This document shows positions 3,222 to 11,962 of a DNA stretch of 15,331 nt, one piece after another; positions within the stretch are counted from its first letter, which is position 1, and every line of letters begins with the position of its first letter. Under the pieces are notes generated by a model. The model was given only the letters and a program-made list of their open reading frames with translations. It had not been told where the DNA came from and made no database searches. The DNA is from a virus (lineage: Duplodnaviria; Heunggongvirae; Uroviricota; Caudoviricetes), in IMG/VR virus record IMGVR_UViG_2617270976_000002, positions 1 to 15,331 of that record; one strand, written 5' to 3'. The translations under genes were made by a program, and so were the position numbers.

Positions 3222-3377
3222 TTACTCCTCAGGTTCGTAAGCTGTGAAGACAGCGACCTCCGTCTGGCCGGTTCGGATTCGTACCTCGCAGAGGTCTTTC
3301 CTCGTTACCAGTGCCGTCACTATGACGGTTAAACAGATGACGATCAGGGCGATTAGCATCGCCTTTTGCTGCTTCAT
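3222..3377 (-). CDS. hok: Hok/Gef-family membrane toxin (HokD/RelF-like, 51 aa)
   Basis: MKQQKAMLIALIVICLTVIVTALVTRKDLCEVRIRTGQTEVAVFTAYEPEE has the Hok signature: single transmembrane helix, then conserved RK.LCE..IR…EVA.F.AYE. Matches my recollection of E. coli HokD/RelF. An AAGGAG SD sits 9 nt upstream of this ATG. Confidence 0.85.
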   Translation of the reverse strand: MKQQKAMLIALIVICLTVIVTALVTRKDLCEVRIRTGQTEVAVFTAYEPEE

Positions 3378-3434
3378 AGCCTGCTTCTCCTTGCCTTTCG
3401 GCACGTAAGAGGCTAACCTACGTGTGTAGAGCAT
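3222..3434 (-). CDS. mok: Mok-like in-frame upstream extension of hok (70 aa)
   Basis: Upstream ATG at 3432-3434 opens MLYTRRLASYVPKGKEKQA in frame with hok. This resembles the N-terminus of MokC (MLNTCRVPLTDRKVKEKRA…, recalled), the reading frame that modulates Hok translation. Confidence 0.5.
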   Translation of the reverse strand: MLYTRRLASYVPKGKEKQAMKQQKAMLIALIVICLTVIVTALVTRKDLCEVRIRTGQTEVAVFTAYEPEE

Positions 3435-3668
3435 AGATATGGCCTCAGATTAATGTTAAGCGTCTTGCCGGACGCGTAATGTTAACTGGGGCTTTTCTCT
3501 ATCTGCCTTTTGGTGTTCATGCCTGAGACAGATAGCCTCAAGCACCCGCTGCAATTCTACTTAACTCTCCTTTTCCCGCAAACCGTTTTTATCCCCAGCG
3601 GCAAATCGAATACACCACCAGCGCCACCGCCATCGCAATTCCTACCGTTGTTAATGCTTCAGGCCAGG

Positions 3669-7331: not shown

Positions 7332-7997
7332 TCAAATAAAACCAGCTGCCTTCCGGCGTTCGTATTCCTGTTTCAGCCGTTCAATTGGCGTTGGCCCTTG
7401 CGGGTGTTTCGCCCCTTCCAGTTGTCGTCGCACTGGCGGAACACTCATCCCGTTACCAACATGCTTTGCCCATTTCGTCAGTTGCCGTTCTGCAAGTCGT
7501 TTTAACTCACCCTGCGTCATCTGGCGCTCAATCCCTCTGGTACGCATTTCGAGGCAGATGTGGTACAGCACAGGCTGTGGCCACGGGTATTTATCACTCC
7601 CGTCGTATCGCCAGGATTCATTGCGCCAGCGCCGGTACTCTTCCATCACTGCATCCACCGTAAGACCAAATGGATTTGCCCCACTCTCCGAAATCAGTGC
7701 AACAAACTCAGCCAGGTCCGGGGGCCACGTTTCACCCGCCCGGCAGCGGTCCATGCACTGACGGCAGACCAGCCGGATTTGCTGTTCAGTCATCGCGCCA
7801 ATCTGGGCAATCCAGAGCTTCGAAGGTGCGGCCCCGTTCTTCTGGGTCCAGCGGTTCGAATAAACCTCCCCCATGAGTTCCCACAGCTTCCAGACCGTTT
7901 CCGTCGCTGATAAATCCGTTTTCACGTTCCCACTGCTCACGTGCTGCCCGAATTTCCTGAACTGCCCGTGATGCGGTGCCACCTGGTGCTGCTGCAT
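7332..7997 (-). CDS. lambda-P-like replication protein (DnaB helicase loader); start uncertain
   Basis: …ETWPPDLAEFVALISE… and …YPWPQPVLYHICLEMRTRGIERQMTQGELKRLAERQLTKW… parallel lambda P (…PFLPSPGQFVAWCRE… and …YPWKSNAHYWLVTNLYQNMRANALTDAELRRKAADELVHM…, recalled). The longest ORF overlaps the O-like gene by about 210 nt; the true start is probably internal. Confidence 0.7.
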   Translation of the reverse strand: MQQHQVAPHHGQFRKFGQHVSSGNVKTDLSATETVWKLWELMGEVYSNRWTQKNGAAPSKLWIAQIGAMTEQQIRLVCRQCMDRCRAGETWPPDLAEFVALISESGANPFGLTVDAVMEEYRRWRNESWRYDGSDKYPWPQPVLYHICLEMRTRGIERQMTQGELKRLAERQLTKWAKHVGNGMSVPPVRRQLEGAKHPQGPTPIERLKQEYERRKAAGFI

Positions 7998-8832
7998 GGT
8001 TTACCCCCTTGCTGACTGGCTTAACCTGCGCCCTGACGTGATTTACGTGACGGGCGAATTTCTGCTCCCACTGAACCTGCGTGAAAACTTTCCCCTCCGC
8101 TGCCCAGTAGTCCCGGAAAGCGGCAAGTTCAGCAGGTGTAAATTCCGGCTCCGGCAAAGCCATCCCCCACAACGCAGCCCGTCGTCGAAAATCCGGCGAC
8201 GGATGCCAGTCATCGACCATCGGAAATTTCCCGATGGGTTCGCTCAGTCCATCCAGGGATGCAGGTTCTGCTGCCTGCAACGGCGTACCACTCGACTCAC
8301 TGGTCGGAGCACTCTCGCGCACGTGCGCGTTATGTGTGGGGTTTAATTCTTTATCTGTATCTTTATCTGTCGTGACTCGTCGTGACATGTCGTGACATAT
8401 GCGTGACTCGTCGTGACACCCCTCATTCTGTTTTCGTAATTTATCCCTCTCGCGCTGCGCTCTCTTGCGCTCTGCCGGGGATTTCGCGGTTTGTGAAACG
8501 TTGCCATTGTCCTCTTTCAGTACCTGGCGTTTTTCCCATCCGGTGATTAAATCTCCATCAAGTACCCGCCCCTGCATTGCCTGTAAAATTGAATCAATTA
8601 CTTCTTCCGTCACATCAAGCGCACTTGCTAAATCTTCCGTCGTGACATCAATGTGACCACGTAGTGACACGCCGTGACATGTCGTGACATTTCGTGACGC
8701 GTTCACCAGAAGGTGGATATACACCGCCATCACTGTTGCAATTGGCTGTCCTGACACCCTGGAAATTGTTCGCCACTTAGGATCATTTGGCATGTCATGC
8801 CATAACCTGAGCCAGGCATTAGCCATACTCAC
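7786..8832 (-). CDS. O-like replication initiator with DnaT-like C-terminal domain
   Basis: 348 aa. The C-terminal segment …IGKFPMVDDWHPSPDFRRRAALWGMALPEPEFTPAELAAFRDYWAAEGKVFTQVQWEQKFARH… closely parallels E. coli DnaT (…[62 protein letters not shown]…, recalled). Both iteron arrays lie inside this gene, and it sits directly upstream of the P-like gene. Confidence 0.8.
   Translation of the reverse strand: MSMANAWLRLWHDMPNDPKWRTISRVSGQPIATVMAVYIHLLVNASRNVTTCHGVSLRGHIDVTTEDLASALDVTEEVIDSILQAMQGRVLDGDLITGWEKRQVLKEDNGNVSQTAKSPAERKRAQRERDKLRKQNEGCHDESRICHDMSRRVTTDKDTDKELNPTHNAHVRESAPTSESSGTPLQAAEPASLDGLSEPIGKFPMVDDWHPSPDFRRRAALWGMALPEPEFTPAELAAFRDYWAAEGKVFTQVQWEQKFARHVNHVRAQVKPVSKGVNHAAAPGGTASRAVQEIRAAREQWERENGFISDGNGLEAVGTHGGGLFEPLDPEERGRTFEALDCPDWRDD
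8369..8417. repeat. iteron array A: five direct (G)TCGTGAC repeats at 10-11 bp phasing, next to an AT-rich tract
   Basis: CGTGAC at about 8371, 8381, 8391, 8402 and 8412. Preceded at 8341-8370 by an AT-rich tract containing a tandem CTTTATCTGT repeat. Located in the linker-coding middle of the O-like gene. Confidence 0.6.
8641..8698. repeat. iteron array B: six direct (C)GTGAC repeats at about 10 bp phasing
   Basis: GTGAC at about 8641, 8653, 8664, 8673, 8683 and 8693, plus one inverted copy (GTCAC) near 8612. Located in the N-terminal-domain coding part of the O-like gene. Confidence 0.55.
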
Positions 8833-8897
8833 CTCTTCTGATACCGAATCTTTTTACTCACGAATTACCGGAAGCGATCCGGTATGAATATTGTCAG

Positions 8898-9323
8898 TCA
8901 ATGCACAACCACAATATTTCCCGCCGGGCCACCACGATTCATCTGGTTGAAACCAGCGATCGCCACTGCGACAAAATCATCAGCGTCTCTCACCAGTCGT
9001 TCCCGCGTCTCCACCAGCTCCCGAAAATAAGCTGAACTGTGGCTGCGCATTCGGGCCACCAGCAGAGGCGGCATTGCTTTTTCGATCGCTGGTAACAACG
9101 CCTGAATTTTTTTAACCGCATCAGGAGTGTCTTTCTCCACCCAGCGGAAAATTTTCTGGGTATTGCGAGCCAGGGCTTCCGGATGGCTGTCGTCATATAA
9201 TTCCGGGAACGTCATACCAAGCTCAAAATAAGCCCGGGTTATTTCAGCTGCCGGAACTTTTTCACCGTCCGGATGCGCCCAGGCATTCATCGCCATGCGG
9301 ATGTGCTCATGCCTGATTTTCAT
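8898..9323 (-). CDS. YdaT-like protein (occupies the cII position)
   Basis: 141 aa. MKIRHEHI… start, internal …KKIQALLPAIEKAMPPLL… and C-terminal …VVVH resemble Rac prophage YdaT as I recall it. Start overlaps the Cro-like gene's end by 17 nt. Confidence 0.6.
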   Translation of the reverse strand: MKIRHEHIRMAMNAWAHPDGEKVPAAEITRAYFELGMTFPELYDDSHPEALARNTQKIFRWVEKDTPDAVKKIQALLPAIEKAMPPLLVARMRSHSSAYFRELVETRERLVRDADDFVAVAIAGFNQMNRGGPAGNIVVVH

Positions 9324-9582
9324 GAATCAACTCCGATGCATTTGGTGTGTTAGCCTTGAATCCAACAGGTAAGCCGTCGGTTGGATTCGGGTAAATATCA
9401 GGCCGGAGTTCATGAGGTGTAACCTCGAAATTCGTTACTTCAGCAACACGTAATGCTTTTTCAGGGCTGAATCTTTCATAGCCCCCCAGCACTCGACTTA
9501 CATGCACCTGAGATAAACCCGTTAGCTTCCCAAACTGTAGCTGGGTGATATGTTTCTCTTTTAAATAGTCTCTTAAGTTCAT
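9307..9582 (-). CDS. Cro-like HTH protein (YdaS-type)
   Basis: ORF track start is a TTG at 9588; I prefer the ATG at 9580-9582 (MNLRDYLKEKHITQLQFGKLTGLSQVHVSRV…), which has a GAAGG RBS. HTH near the N-terminus; …ELRPDIYPNP… resembles the ELRPDI motif of YdaS (recalled). Divergent from the repressor gene. Confidence 0.7.
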   Translation of the reverse strand: MNLRDYLKEKHITQLQFGKLTGLSQVHVSRVLGGYERFSPEKALRVAEVTNFEVTPHELRPDIYPNPTDGLPVGFKANTPNASELIHENQA

Positions 9583-9689
9583 AGCCAACCTTCTACGTTA
9601 TGCCCCGAGCAAATATTAGCCCCACTAATTTTAAAGATCAATAGCCAGGCTATCTTTGATAATATCGGTAAAACAAATAAACTCTATGT
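9583..9689. promoter_or_regulatory. immunity-region control region: divergent promoters with TAGCC-type operator half-sites
   Basis: Leftward promoter on the minus strand: TTGATC (9636-9641), 17 nt, TAATAT (9613-9618). Rightward extended -10 TGaTAATAT at about 9657-9665. Perfect palindrome ATAGCCAGGCTAT at 9641-9653, with related sites TTAGCCCCACTAA (9616-9628) and ATAGCCAACC (9581-9590). Confidence 0.5.
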
Positions 9690-10151
9690 ATGAAAAAAAC
9701 ACGCGAAGTGATTGCAACTCCAGCAGCGAGCAAGAATTTAAAAGCCGCATGGAATGCAAGAAAAAAAGAGCTGAAGCTGACTCAAGAGCTGGCGGCTGAG
9801 TTGTTGGGATTCGAATCTCAAGGCACCGTTAGCCAGTATCTGAACGGCAAGATACCGGTAAATACCGACGCTGCGCTAAAATTTGCGGCTCTGTTAAAGG
9901 TAAAACCAGAGGACATTCGAGAAGACCTTAAAGACTTAATGAATTATGTAAGATCATCAGATACTTATGATGATAGCTTTTCAGGCAAAGGATGGAGGCT
10001 GGTCAATGAAGAACAGGCAGAGTTACTTAACCTCTTCGAGATTCTACCTGCGTCAGAAAAAGCCAAACTCCTTAACCAGCTACGTGGACTAAACAAGCTC
10101 TACGAGGAAGCCTTCGAGAACATGCTGGCACTAAAGAAACGTAACCAGTAG
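9690..10151 (+). CDS. DicA-like prophage repressor (HTH_XRE, no S24 peptidase domain)
   Basis: 153 aa. HTH …LTQELAAELLGFESQGTVSQYLNG…; C-terminal …ELLNLFEILPASEKAKLLNQLRGLNKLYEEAFENMLALKKR parallels the DicA C-terminus (…ELLELFNALPESEQDTQLAEMRARVKNFNKLFEELLKARQR, recalled). No Ala-Gly/Ser-Lys autocleavage module is visible. Confidence 0.75.
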   Translation: MKKTREVIATPAASKNLKAAWNARKKELKLTQELAAELLGFESQGTVSQYLNGKIPVNTDAALKFAALLKVKPEDIREDLKDLMNYVRSSDTYDDSFSGKGWRLVNEEQAELLNLFEILPASEKAKLLNQLRGLNKLYEEAFENMLALKKRNQ

Positions 10152-11429: not shown

Positions 11430-11487
11430 TTTCTGGTGACTTTTGGCGGTATCAGTTTTACTCCGTGACTGCTCTGCCGCCCTTTTT
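11430..11487 (+). ncRNA. dicF: DicF small RNA (ftsZ-targeting sRNA of Qin-type prophages)
   Basis: TTTCTGGTGACTTTTGGCGGTATCAGTTTTACTCCGTGACTGCTCTGCCGCCC followed by TTTTT matches my recollection of the 53-nt E. coli DicF almost base for base. The 3' GGCGG…CCGCC stem plus U-tract forms its terminator. Confidence 0.8.
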
Positions 11488-11768
11488 AAAGTGAATTTTG
11501 TGATGCGGTGAATGCGGCTGAGCGCACGCGGAACAGTTAAAACCAAAAACAGTGTTATGGGTGGATTCTCTGTATCCGGCGTTAATTGTTAACTGGTTAA
11601 CGTCACCTGGAGGCACCAGGCACCGCATCAACAAAGTTCACTTCGGTGATGAAAGGTAAGAGAAAATGTTGAATGTAGCTATTGAAAACCAGAACGGGTG
11701 GAATTATAGTGCACCTGCACCTCATAAAACGGGTGCCGGGCGTGGAAACCCGAAATCATTCACGGCGC

Positions 11769-11795
11769 ATAACCGCGCTCAGGCGGTTTTTTTAT
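11769..11795 (+). terminator. intrinsic terminator or attenuator in the rha leader
   Basis: AACCGC-GCTCAG-GCGGTT followed by TTTTTTT, nested in a longer inverted repeat (GCGCATAA…TTATGCG). About 170 nt upstream of the rha start. Confidence 0.45.
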
Positions 11796-11962
11796 GCGTT
11801 AAGCACAGCCACATTCGCATTATGGTGGGGCGTGCAGGGCAGCCGCAAGGCTGGCCGGGTTCCGTGATGACCGGTATTTCCACCCCTGTACGTCTCACCA
11901 CCCTTATGGTCGTGGAAAACCTCGGTGGTGAGTTAATCAAATTCATCGCGGAGGCTGCCATC

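Follow-up and report, generated by a model that had tools for sequence, protein, structure and literature searches.

A candidate replication origin with two iteron arrays inside the initiator gene of an E. coli lambdoid prophage

Replicons in which one initiator-binding repeat forms two separate clusters include phage P4 (ori and crr) and the plasmids P1 and F (ori with incA and incC). Their second cluster works in cis, as an enhancer in the case of P4 crr and as a negative control element in the case of incA. The iteron of phage lambda is an inverted repeat that is bound by a dimer of the O protein. Lambda carries one cluster of four 19-bp iterons in gene O, and variants with six iterons occur in Stx phages (PMC7466680). 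Phage SPP1 has two sets of binding sites: oriL is located in gene 38, where the replisome organizer G38P binds direct repeats beside an AT-rich element, and oriR lies ca. 13 kb away with an AT-rich element of its own (PMC6316719). In the RepA_N plasmid pSK41 the origin is situated centrally in rep and contains a single set of four Rep boxes (PMC5703833).

The stretch of DNA analysed here (15,331 nucleotides, called the window below) originates from an E. coli lambdoid prophage that is integrated next to ompW; about half of the complete E. coli genomes match this region. An O-like initiator gene sits at the position of lambda O, and upstream of it are a repressor-like HTH gene (9690-10151, plus strand), a Cro/YdaS-like gene and a CII/YdaT-like gene. 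A preliminary description had pointed to two arrays of the hexamer CGTGAC within the O-like gene as a candidate origin with an architecture unlike the single four-iteron set of lambda, a proposal that is supported by the comparative conservation reported below. The literature that was searched contains no description of such a two-array arrangement or of the origin of this initiator family.

The O-like gene and its repeat arrays

The repeat unit reads GTCACG in the orientation of the gene. We call the central array (the first one in the preliminary description) array B and the N-proximal array (the second one) array A. The relevant features are as follows.

7332-7793, minus strand: lambda-P-like helicase loader gene, overlapping the end of the O-like gene (Pfam Phage_lambda_P PF06992, E 1e-15)
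7786-8826, minus strand: O-like initiator ('replisome organizer') gene, 346 amino acids with the ATG at 8826 (open reading frame and translation)
8026-8226, minus strand: region coding for a DnaT-like ssDNA-binding domain, res. 201-267 (Pfam DnaT PF17948, E 1e-17)
8316-8329, no strand: GC-rich perfect palindrome of 14 bp, CGCGCACGTGCGCG, just past the AT tract
8340-8370, minus strand: AT/purine-rich tract, ACAGATAAAGATACAGATAAAGAATTAAACC in gene orientation, GC content 35%, candidate DNA-unwinding element
8371-8417, minus strand: array B, five exact GTCACG copies at gene nt 410, 420, 431, 441 and 451
8515-8826, minus strand: region coding for the N-terminal DnaD-NTD-like winged-helix domain, res. 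1-104, the presumed iteron-binding module
8608-8613, minus strand: single inverted iteron, GTGACG in gene orientation, gene nt 214, 33 bp downstream of the last copy of array A
8641-8698, minus strand: array A, six GTCAC(G) copies at gene nt 129, 139, 149, 159, 170 and 181, of which four are exact GTCACG and two degenerate

All elements, i.e. both arrays, the inverted copy and the AT tract, lie inside the minus-strand O-like gene. Array B consists of five exact copies of CGTGAC on the plus strand (8371, 8381, 8391, 8402 and 8412; spacing 10, 10, 11 and 10 bp), in agreement with the five copies at 10/11-bp phasing described earlier. The six copies earlier assigned to array A include only four exact ones (8641, 8673, 8683 and 8693, plus strand), the other two units being TGTGAC at 8653 and AGTGAC at 8663; GTGAC is common to all six, with spacings of 12, 10, 10, 10 and 10 bp. 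The 270 bp that were given as the separation of the arrays are correct as the start-to-start distance. In gene orientation array A lies ca. 230 bp upstream of array B, and both are contained within 330 bp of the gene. The inverted copy at 8608-8613, which the preliminary description missed, is conserved in most relatives.

Both arrays are real, and the clustering of the hexamer is far beyond chance. The window contains 15 matches against 6.4 expected, a number reached by none of 200 shuffles. Five copies occur within 60 bp, whereas the maximum in 5000 Markov simulations was three; with a look-elsewhere correction over all hexamers, four copies were reached in 1 of 300 simulations and five in none of 300. 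As a result of the 10-bp period the hexamer falls in all three reading frames, giving VT, SR and HD/CH, so that the earlier remark that the arrays impose repetitive peptide segments on the protein is correct. A hexamer that is read in all three frames cannot itself be a peptide repeat.

The AT-rich tandem repeat that was noted beside array B is present as well: TCTTTATCTGT occurs twice in 8348-8370 and abuts the array. The tract codes for an Asp-Lys-rich linker and forms the joint of a mosaic gene. Over the C-terminal half (7702-8368) the DNA matches ydaU of phage Rac-SA53 at 92% identity, and over the N-terminal half (8348-9000) it matches 'O' genes from other coliphages at 88%; the stretch shared by the two blocks of homology (8348-8368) falls exactly in the AT tract. 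The palindrome at 8316-8329 is possibly a boundary element of the origin; similar GC palindromes are found in locus L005 and in Rac-SA53. No DnaA boxes were found in or near the O-like gene, and GATC sites are not clustered and are under-represented in the window. A promoter and terminator scan of 8200-9700 gave no site overlapping either array, with counts that match those of shuffled sequences. A second AT-rich unwinding element beside array A was considered on account of a dip to 35% GC at 8580-8619 and was rejected, the dip not being conserved in GC-rich relatives; no adjacent AT tract of array A is conserved among relatives.

From its N-terminus the O-like protein comprises a winged-helix domain, then a basic helix and a disordered linker, and last a DnaT-like domain for binding ssDNA. 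In an AlphaFold (AF2) model built on 47 homologues the winged-helix domain is predicted with confidence (helices 2-11, 16-25 and 29-45, hairpin 47-56, helices 63-70 and 74-84, and a wing), followed by the basic helix (res. 117-134), a disordered segment (res. 138-195) and the DnaT-like domain (res. ca. 200-270). According to the model, array A covers the codons for the last part of helix 29-45, for the hairpin and for the stretch leading into the HTH, while array B and the AT tract code for a linker with pLDDT below 50. The N-terminal domain is a predicted winged helix of the DnaD-NTD/RepA_N-like type. PHROG replication-initiation families match the O-like protein, and the N-terminal domain gives weak PHROG matches to a DnaD-like loader (2e-7) and a replisome organizer (5e-5). 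Residues 1-137 match no Pfam family even at E up to 10, except for a faint match to a Crp HTH, and no sequence relative of the domain was found in the PDB. The DnaT-like domain shares 55-60% identity with the domain by which DnaT binds ssDNA and for which structures are solved (4ou6/6aeq). RefSeq names the O-like protein 'DnaT-like ssDNA-binding domain-containing protein' and the P-like protein 'replication protein P'; the name 'primosomal protein I' that appears in phage records is a domain-level name only. An assignment as DnaT equivalog (NF002770) was rejected, the score being 97 bits against a cut-off of 201 with only profile positions 80-166 matched.

Conservation of the arrays among related loci

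The N-terminal domain is widespread. Its matches form 815 clusters at 90% identity, and at 50% identity there are 1287 representatives, 817 of them with E ≤ 1e-10, in hosts that include Enterobacterales, Pseudomonas, Bordetella, Chromobacterium, Acidovorax and Sphingomonas. Among deposited phage genomes only 25 possess the domain, and no model phage is among them. For the searched sources neither a Pfam or NCBIfam model, nor a solved structure, nor an experimental study of this domain family was found.

Motifs were mapped in gene coordinates in a survey of 52 genomic loci, each from a different species. Among 49 homologous loci, the central zone contains a phased array in 40. The same 5-mer is found N-proximally in at least two copies in 36 of 40 and in at least three in 31 of 40, and elsewhere in the first 620 nt it is almost absent. 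In the relatives array B occupies the same place in the gene with 3 to 9 copies. Some two dozen loci of many different genera (class I) have GTCACG at nt 129, 139, 149 and 160, GTGAC in inverted orientation at nt 193, and another three or four GTCACG copies at ca. nt 387-420, directly followed by CAGATAAAGATAAAGA. The (GATAAA)n tract always comes directly after array B, even in hosts where this part of the gene has a GC content of 60-65%. Eleven loci carry CGAACGC instead, at nt 131, 141 and 151 and again at ca. nt 355-395, five loci have GTAACGC in both places, and one Erwinia locus has a CGTCA variant with 5-bp spacing, also in both places. There are therefore at least three motif classes (GTCACG, CGAACGC and GTAACGC), and they switch in both arrays together, the two arrays sharing one specificity.

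The preliminary description had named lack of conserved position across homologous replication modules as the finding that would speak against an origin. Given the co-switching of the motif and its conserved position, the opposite is the case: both arrays recur at unchanged places in the gene in dozens of homologues, which come from Gamma-, Beta- and Alphaproteobacteria, and their sequence changes in concert. A third motif cluster, which would be the analogue of SPP1 oriR, was found neither in the window nor in the complete 40-kb genome of phage Evi, which has only arrays A and B.

Copy number varies among close relatives. In the commonest four-copy form the arrays are located at gene nt 129-160 and ca. 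387-418, and other relatives have 3 to 5 copies in array B; compared to this form, the gene in the window is 21 bp (two iterons, seven codons) longer in each array. In a coliphage whose N-terminal half is homologous, both arrays occur, array B as five copies and array A, which is 21 bp shorter, as four. Of 80 close relatives in E. coli, 77 have an array A of six copies and 3 have one of four; array B has 4, 5, 6 or 9 copies. A scan of viral contigs returned close E. coli relatives only and revealed copy-number polymorphism, with no new specificity classes. Copy number shifts in steps of 21 bp that preserve the reading frame; change is forced into units of two iterons and seven codons.

The comparative data show that selection acts on the DNA of both arrays, and for array A synonymous sites reveal it in two motif classes. 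For the GTCACG class (18 co-linear genes) the relative synonymous entropy is 0.14 inside array A and 0.81 outside (p = 2e-6, 18 loci), and for the CGAACGC class it is 0.10 inside and 0.72 outside (p = 3e-6, 7 loci). In the GTCACG class synonymous sites are near saturation outside the array and almost invariant inside. When one further near-identical locus is included in the codon counts, Val is encoded by GTC and Thr by ACG in 19 of 19 sequences at two sites each, Gly is encoded by GGT and His by CAC. The inverted copy is constrained as well, with the Val codon GTG in 17 of 17 sequences. The locus is a natural case of overlapping codes, in which putative binding sites freeze synonymous positions in the coding DNA of the presumed binding domain itself.

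The arrays are linked only to the N-terminal domain. In the 23 class I (GTCACG) loci this domain is always present, whereas YdaT-, YdaS-, P- and DnaT-like proteins are encoded within 3 kb in only two or three of them. The downstream genes vary and include IstB/DnaC-like ATPases, DUF977, DUF6475, a ParB-HTH protein and proteins without a match. The motif class changes with the subfamily of the N-terminal domain. The idea that the geometry of the repeats matches the DnaT-like C-terminal domain, put forward in the preliminary description, is rejected on these data: of 10 C-terminal halves that were tested only 2 have a DnaT domain, only 3 of the 23 class I loci have a DnaT-like C-terminus in the surrounding 3 kb, and Rac-SA53 ydaU has the same C-terminal half with no CGTGAC arrays. 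Since the C-terminal halves and the neighbours vary while the arrays stay with the N-terminal domain, the arrays belong to the module formed by that domain.

Possible roles of the two arrays

The comparative evidence strongly supports the region as the replication origin of the prophage. On balance it also tilts towards a particular layout, in which this E. coli lambdoid prophage has its origin inside its own initiator gene, with array B and the AT tract as core and array A as an auxiliary element acting through looping. The core would comprise the same-orientation GTCACG copies of array B, one per helical turn, and the subsequent (GATAAA)n tract, in the DNA that codes for the linker, a placement shared with lambda ori and pSK41 ori. 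In combination these features would repeat the logic of lambda ori (PMC7466680), SPP1 oriL (PMC6316719) and pSK41 ori (PMC5703833). The auxiliary element would comprise the six copies of array A and the inverted one, located in DNA that codes for the hairpin of the initiator's own winged-helix domain. A direct core of 6-7 bp repeated once per helical turn suggests that monomers bind head-to-tail on one face of the DNA, and we propose that DnaD-like winged-helix monomers coat each array in this way. The protein-coated arrays would then interact in cis with looping out of the intervening DNA, which would raise the occupancy and cooperativity of array B and help to melt the adjacent AT tract. In the last step the DnaT-like C-terminal domain would hold the single strand and the P-like protein would deliver the host DnaB.

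We infer from sequence comparison that the initiator probably binds the arrays, that they probably mark the origin, and that array A may play a positive role through looping. The most economical reading would make array A an auxiliary group of initiator sites, cooperating with array B in cis. A fixed helical phase between the arrays was considered and is not conserved, the start-to-start distance ranging from ca. 230 to 350 bp among relatives, a spread that speaks against a rigid wrap with fixed phase. Some lineages with an array B (L042 and L048) have a degenerate array A or none at all, and hence array A is not essential everywhere; together with the variable phase, its absence from a few lineages makes it look accessory.

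A different function for array A has to be taken seriously as a rival, though we regard it as less likely: array B and the AT tract would again form the origin, and array A would serve negative control, by an autoregulatory block of transcription, by gating the transcriptional activation of the origin, or by titration or handcuffing. A transcription block would affect both the O-like gene itself and the downstream loader gene, and titration would resemble that by the incA and incC iterons of P1 and F. The shared motif and orientation of the arrays imply the same binding protein for both. Array A lies early in the transcription unit (gene nt 129-186), is not accompanied by a conserved AT tract and is dispensable in some lineages, features that would suit a regulatory site. 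Plasmid Rep proteins use inverted half-iterons for autorepression, and the inverted copy near array A recalls these. Against negative control, no promoter-like site covers array A, and the origin of a lytic phage has little obvious need of copy-number restraint. Furthermore, the extra distal iterons in Stx phages are needed for efficient replication and are not inhibitory (PMC7466680).

The position of array A also allows a more speculative proposal that concerns specificity. The DNA of array A might encode, besides binding sites, the hairpin (res. ca. 45-62) that sets iteron recognition, so that one segment would be both the target and part of the code for its reader; we consider this doubtful. 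A change of specificity would then begin with co-mutation of the array A segment and be followed by conversion of array B. In an alignment of the winged-helix domain the only columns that cleanly separate the GTCACG from the CGAACGC class are in the hairpin (NVTRGH and ATERGR, respectively), with one more discriminating column just past the domain, and the putative recognition helix does not discriminate. Locus L042, from which array A has been lost, retains GTCACGCC in array B and has the class I hairpin residue of 'RGH' in an otherwise class II-like domain. The peptide must, however, change with its coding DNA, by which the correlation between hairpin and motif class is confounded. The basic helix after the domain co-varies with the class too, which speaks against a reading in which the hairpin alone is responsible. 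In DnaD, the structural neighbour, the extra elements around the winged helix serve oligomerisation, and this counts against the hairpin as well. A hairpin that did set specificity would illustrate a way for initiator and origin to switch specificity together.

That a protein other than the O-like initiator, either a phage regulator or a host factor, binds the arrays, or that they have a role outside replication such as that of a recombination hotspot, is very improbable. Recombination does occur here, as the mosaic joint in the AT tract illustrates, but the N-terminal domain is the sole coding element linked to the arrays across the 23 class I loci, the motif class follows its subfamily, and the specificity of a host factor would not differ between prophages of related hosts. 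Least probable of all is that the repeats lack a function at the DNA level and are a by-product of a repetitive peptide, of replication slippage or of mRNA structure: VT, SR and HD peptide motifs do arise and copy number is polymorphic, but the same hexamer occurs in all three frames, synonymous sites are frozen only inside the array and this in two independent classes, the pattern is conserved across Gamma-, Beta- and Alphaproteobacteria, and the RNA of array A folds no better than shuffled sequences (MFE z = +0.42) with no Rfam match in the region.

Comparison with known systems

YdaU of the Rac prophage (Rac-SA53) has the same DnaT-like C-terminal half, AT tract, GC palindrome and gene order. 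Unlike the protein described here it has an unrelated N-terminal domain, and its gene contains neither CGTGAC nor a second array. What Rac-SA53 ydaU does have is a single small group of TGTTCAAACA/TGTTTGAACA sites in inverted orientation next to the AT tract, and with only this one cluster the Rac-type YdaU was rejected as a further two-array system.

Similar to P4, P1 and F, the locus has two separated clusters of the same repeat. In those replicons the clusters are intergenic or kilobases apart and the initiators are unrelated, whereas here both lie in the open reading frame of the initiator. The arrangement differs also from that of pSK41, for which no array is reported in the region coding for the DNA-binding domain, and a family match to the pSK41 type of initiator was not obtained at the sequence level. 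The likeness to SPP1 consists in an initiator of the replisome-organizer type, direct repeats within its own gene beside an AT-rich element, the presence of two sets of sites, and weak HMM links to replisome organizer and DnaD-like PHROGs. In contrast to the distant oriL and oriR, both arrays are here located within 330 bp of one gene and only one of them has an AT tract.

The resemblance to lambda ori and gene O is more extensive. In both cases the origin (here the candidate) is located in the initiator gene, in linker-coding DNA between the DNA-binding and the loader-recruiting domain, an AT-rich tract comes after the iterons, and a P-like loader gene is located downstream. As in lambda and the Stx phages, copy number varies among relatives and lengthens the protein accordingly (PMC7466680). 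There are also clear differences. No relation in sequence could be detected between the N-terminal domain and lambda O, and the type of loader varies in the relatives. Instead of one cluster of 19-bp iterons, the O-like gene contains direct cores of 6-7 bp with a 10/11-bp period in two clusters 270 bp apart, and the second array is inside the coding sequence of the DNA-binding domain.

Judged by its sequence, the architecture would be a variant of the intragenic iteron origin, extended by a second array and found in a large family of initiators. The comparative signal may be used to map candidate origins, with at least three initiator specificities, for hundreds of prophages of Gamma-, Beta- and Alphaproteobacteria. 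If array A is a cis-acting enhancer or control element, origins of the lambda style, in which a single iteron cluster is embedded in the initiator gene, would gain a second functional element.

Mosaic structure and naming of the O-like gene

Comparison of homology blocks placed the mosaic joint of the O-like gene, the candidate initiator gene, exactly at the AT tract of (GATAAA)n type (window 8348-8368). The C-terminal half (7702-8368) shares 92% identity with ydaU of Rac-SA53, and the N-terminal half (8348-9000) shares 88% identity with the 'O' genes of other coliphages. The AT tract seems to act as a linker at which recombination shuffles initiator domains. Just past it lies the following element:

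Window 8316-8329: perfect 14-bp GC-rich palindrome, CGCGCACGTGCGCG

Rac-SA53 and a Serratia relative have similar GC palindromes in the same position.

In deposited phage genomes (records H1, H18 and H21) the O-like gene (7786-8826) is labelled 'primosomal protein I'. This name is misleading, since the match of the encoded protein to DnaT is limited to the C-terminal ssDNA-binding domain and scores 97 bits, below the equivalog cut-off of 201 bits.

Variation of the iteron arrays among relatives

Among the close E. coli prophages (L056-L135) iteron copy number is polymorphic, with 6 or 4 copies in the N-proximal array A and 4, 5, 6 or 9 copies in the central array B, the 9 copies occurring in L110 (gene nt 410-493). 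In the Pseudomonas relative L026 array A is rearranged (gene nt 149-218): GTCAC occurs in direct orientation at nt 149, 170, 180 and 218, and three inverted GTGAC copies are found at nt 193, 202 and 211 with 9-bp spacing.

The Noviherbaspirillum homologue L042 (3001-3520, compared with L050) is without array A and carries three GTCACGCCAT units in array B. Its domain is nearest to the CGAACGC iteron class overall, yet it possesses the 'RGH' hairpin residue of class I, the GTCACG iteron class, and its basic helix is also class I-like. In the Serratia and Pantoea relatives L047 and L052 a different C-terminal part (YVYYV...GISxNPWAR) is fused to the N-terminal domain, and at the fusion junction (about gene nt 320-370) TACTACGTAG-like repeats replace the usual iterons and the (GATAAA)n tract.

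Other features of the window

GATC is rarer than expected in the whole window, with 39 sites against about 61 expected; all 200 shuffles of the whole window contained at least 39 sites. Rfam matches exceeding the gathering score identified four RNA features:

Window 3372-3547, minus strand: sok antitoxin RNA, adjoining hokD
Window 11431-11482, plus strand: DicF sRNA
Window 11717-11793, plus strand: isrK
Window 11818-11905, plus strand: C4 antisense RNA

Sok, DicF, isrK and C4 antisense RNA are typical cargo of Qin/Rac-like prophages.
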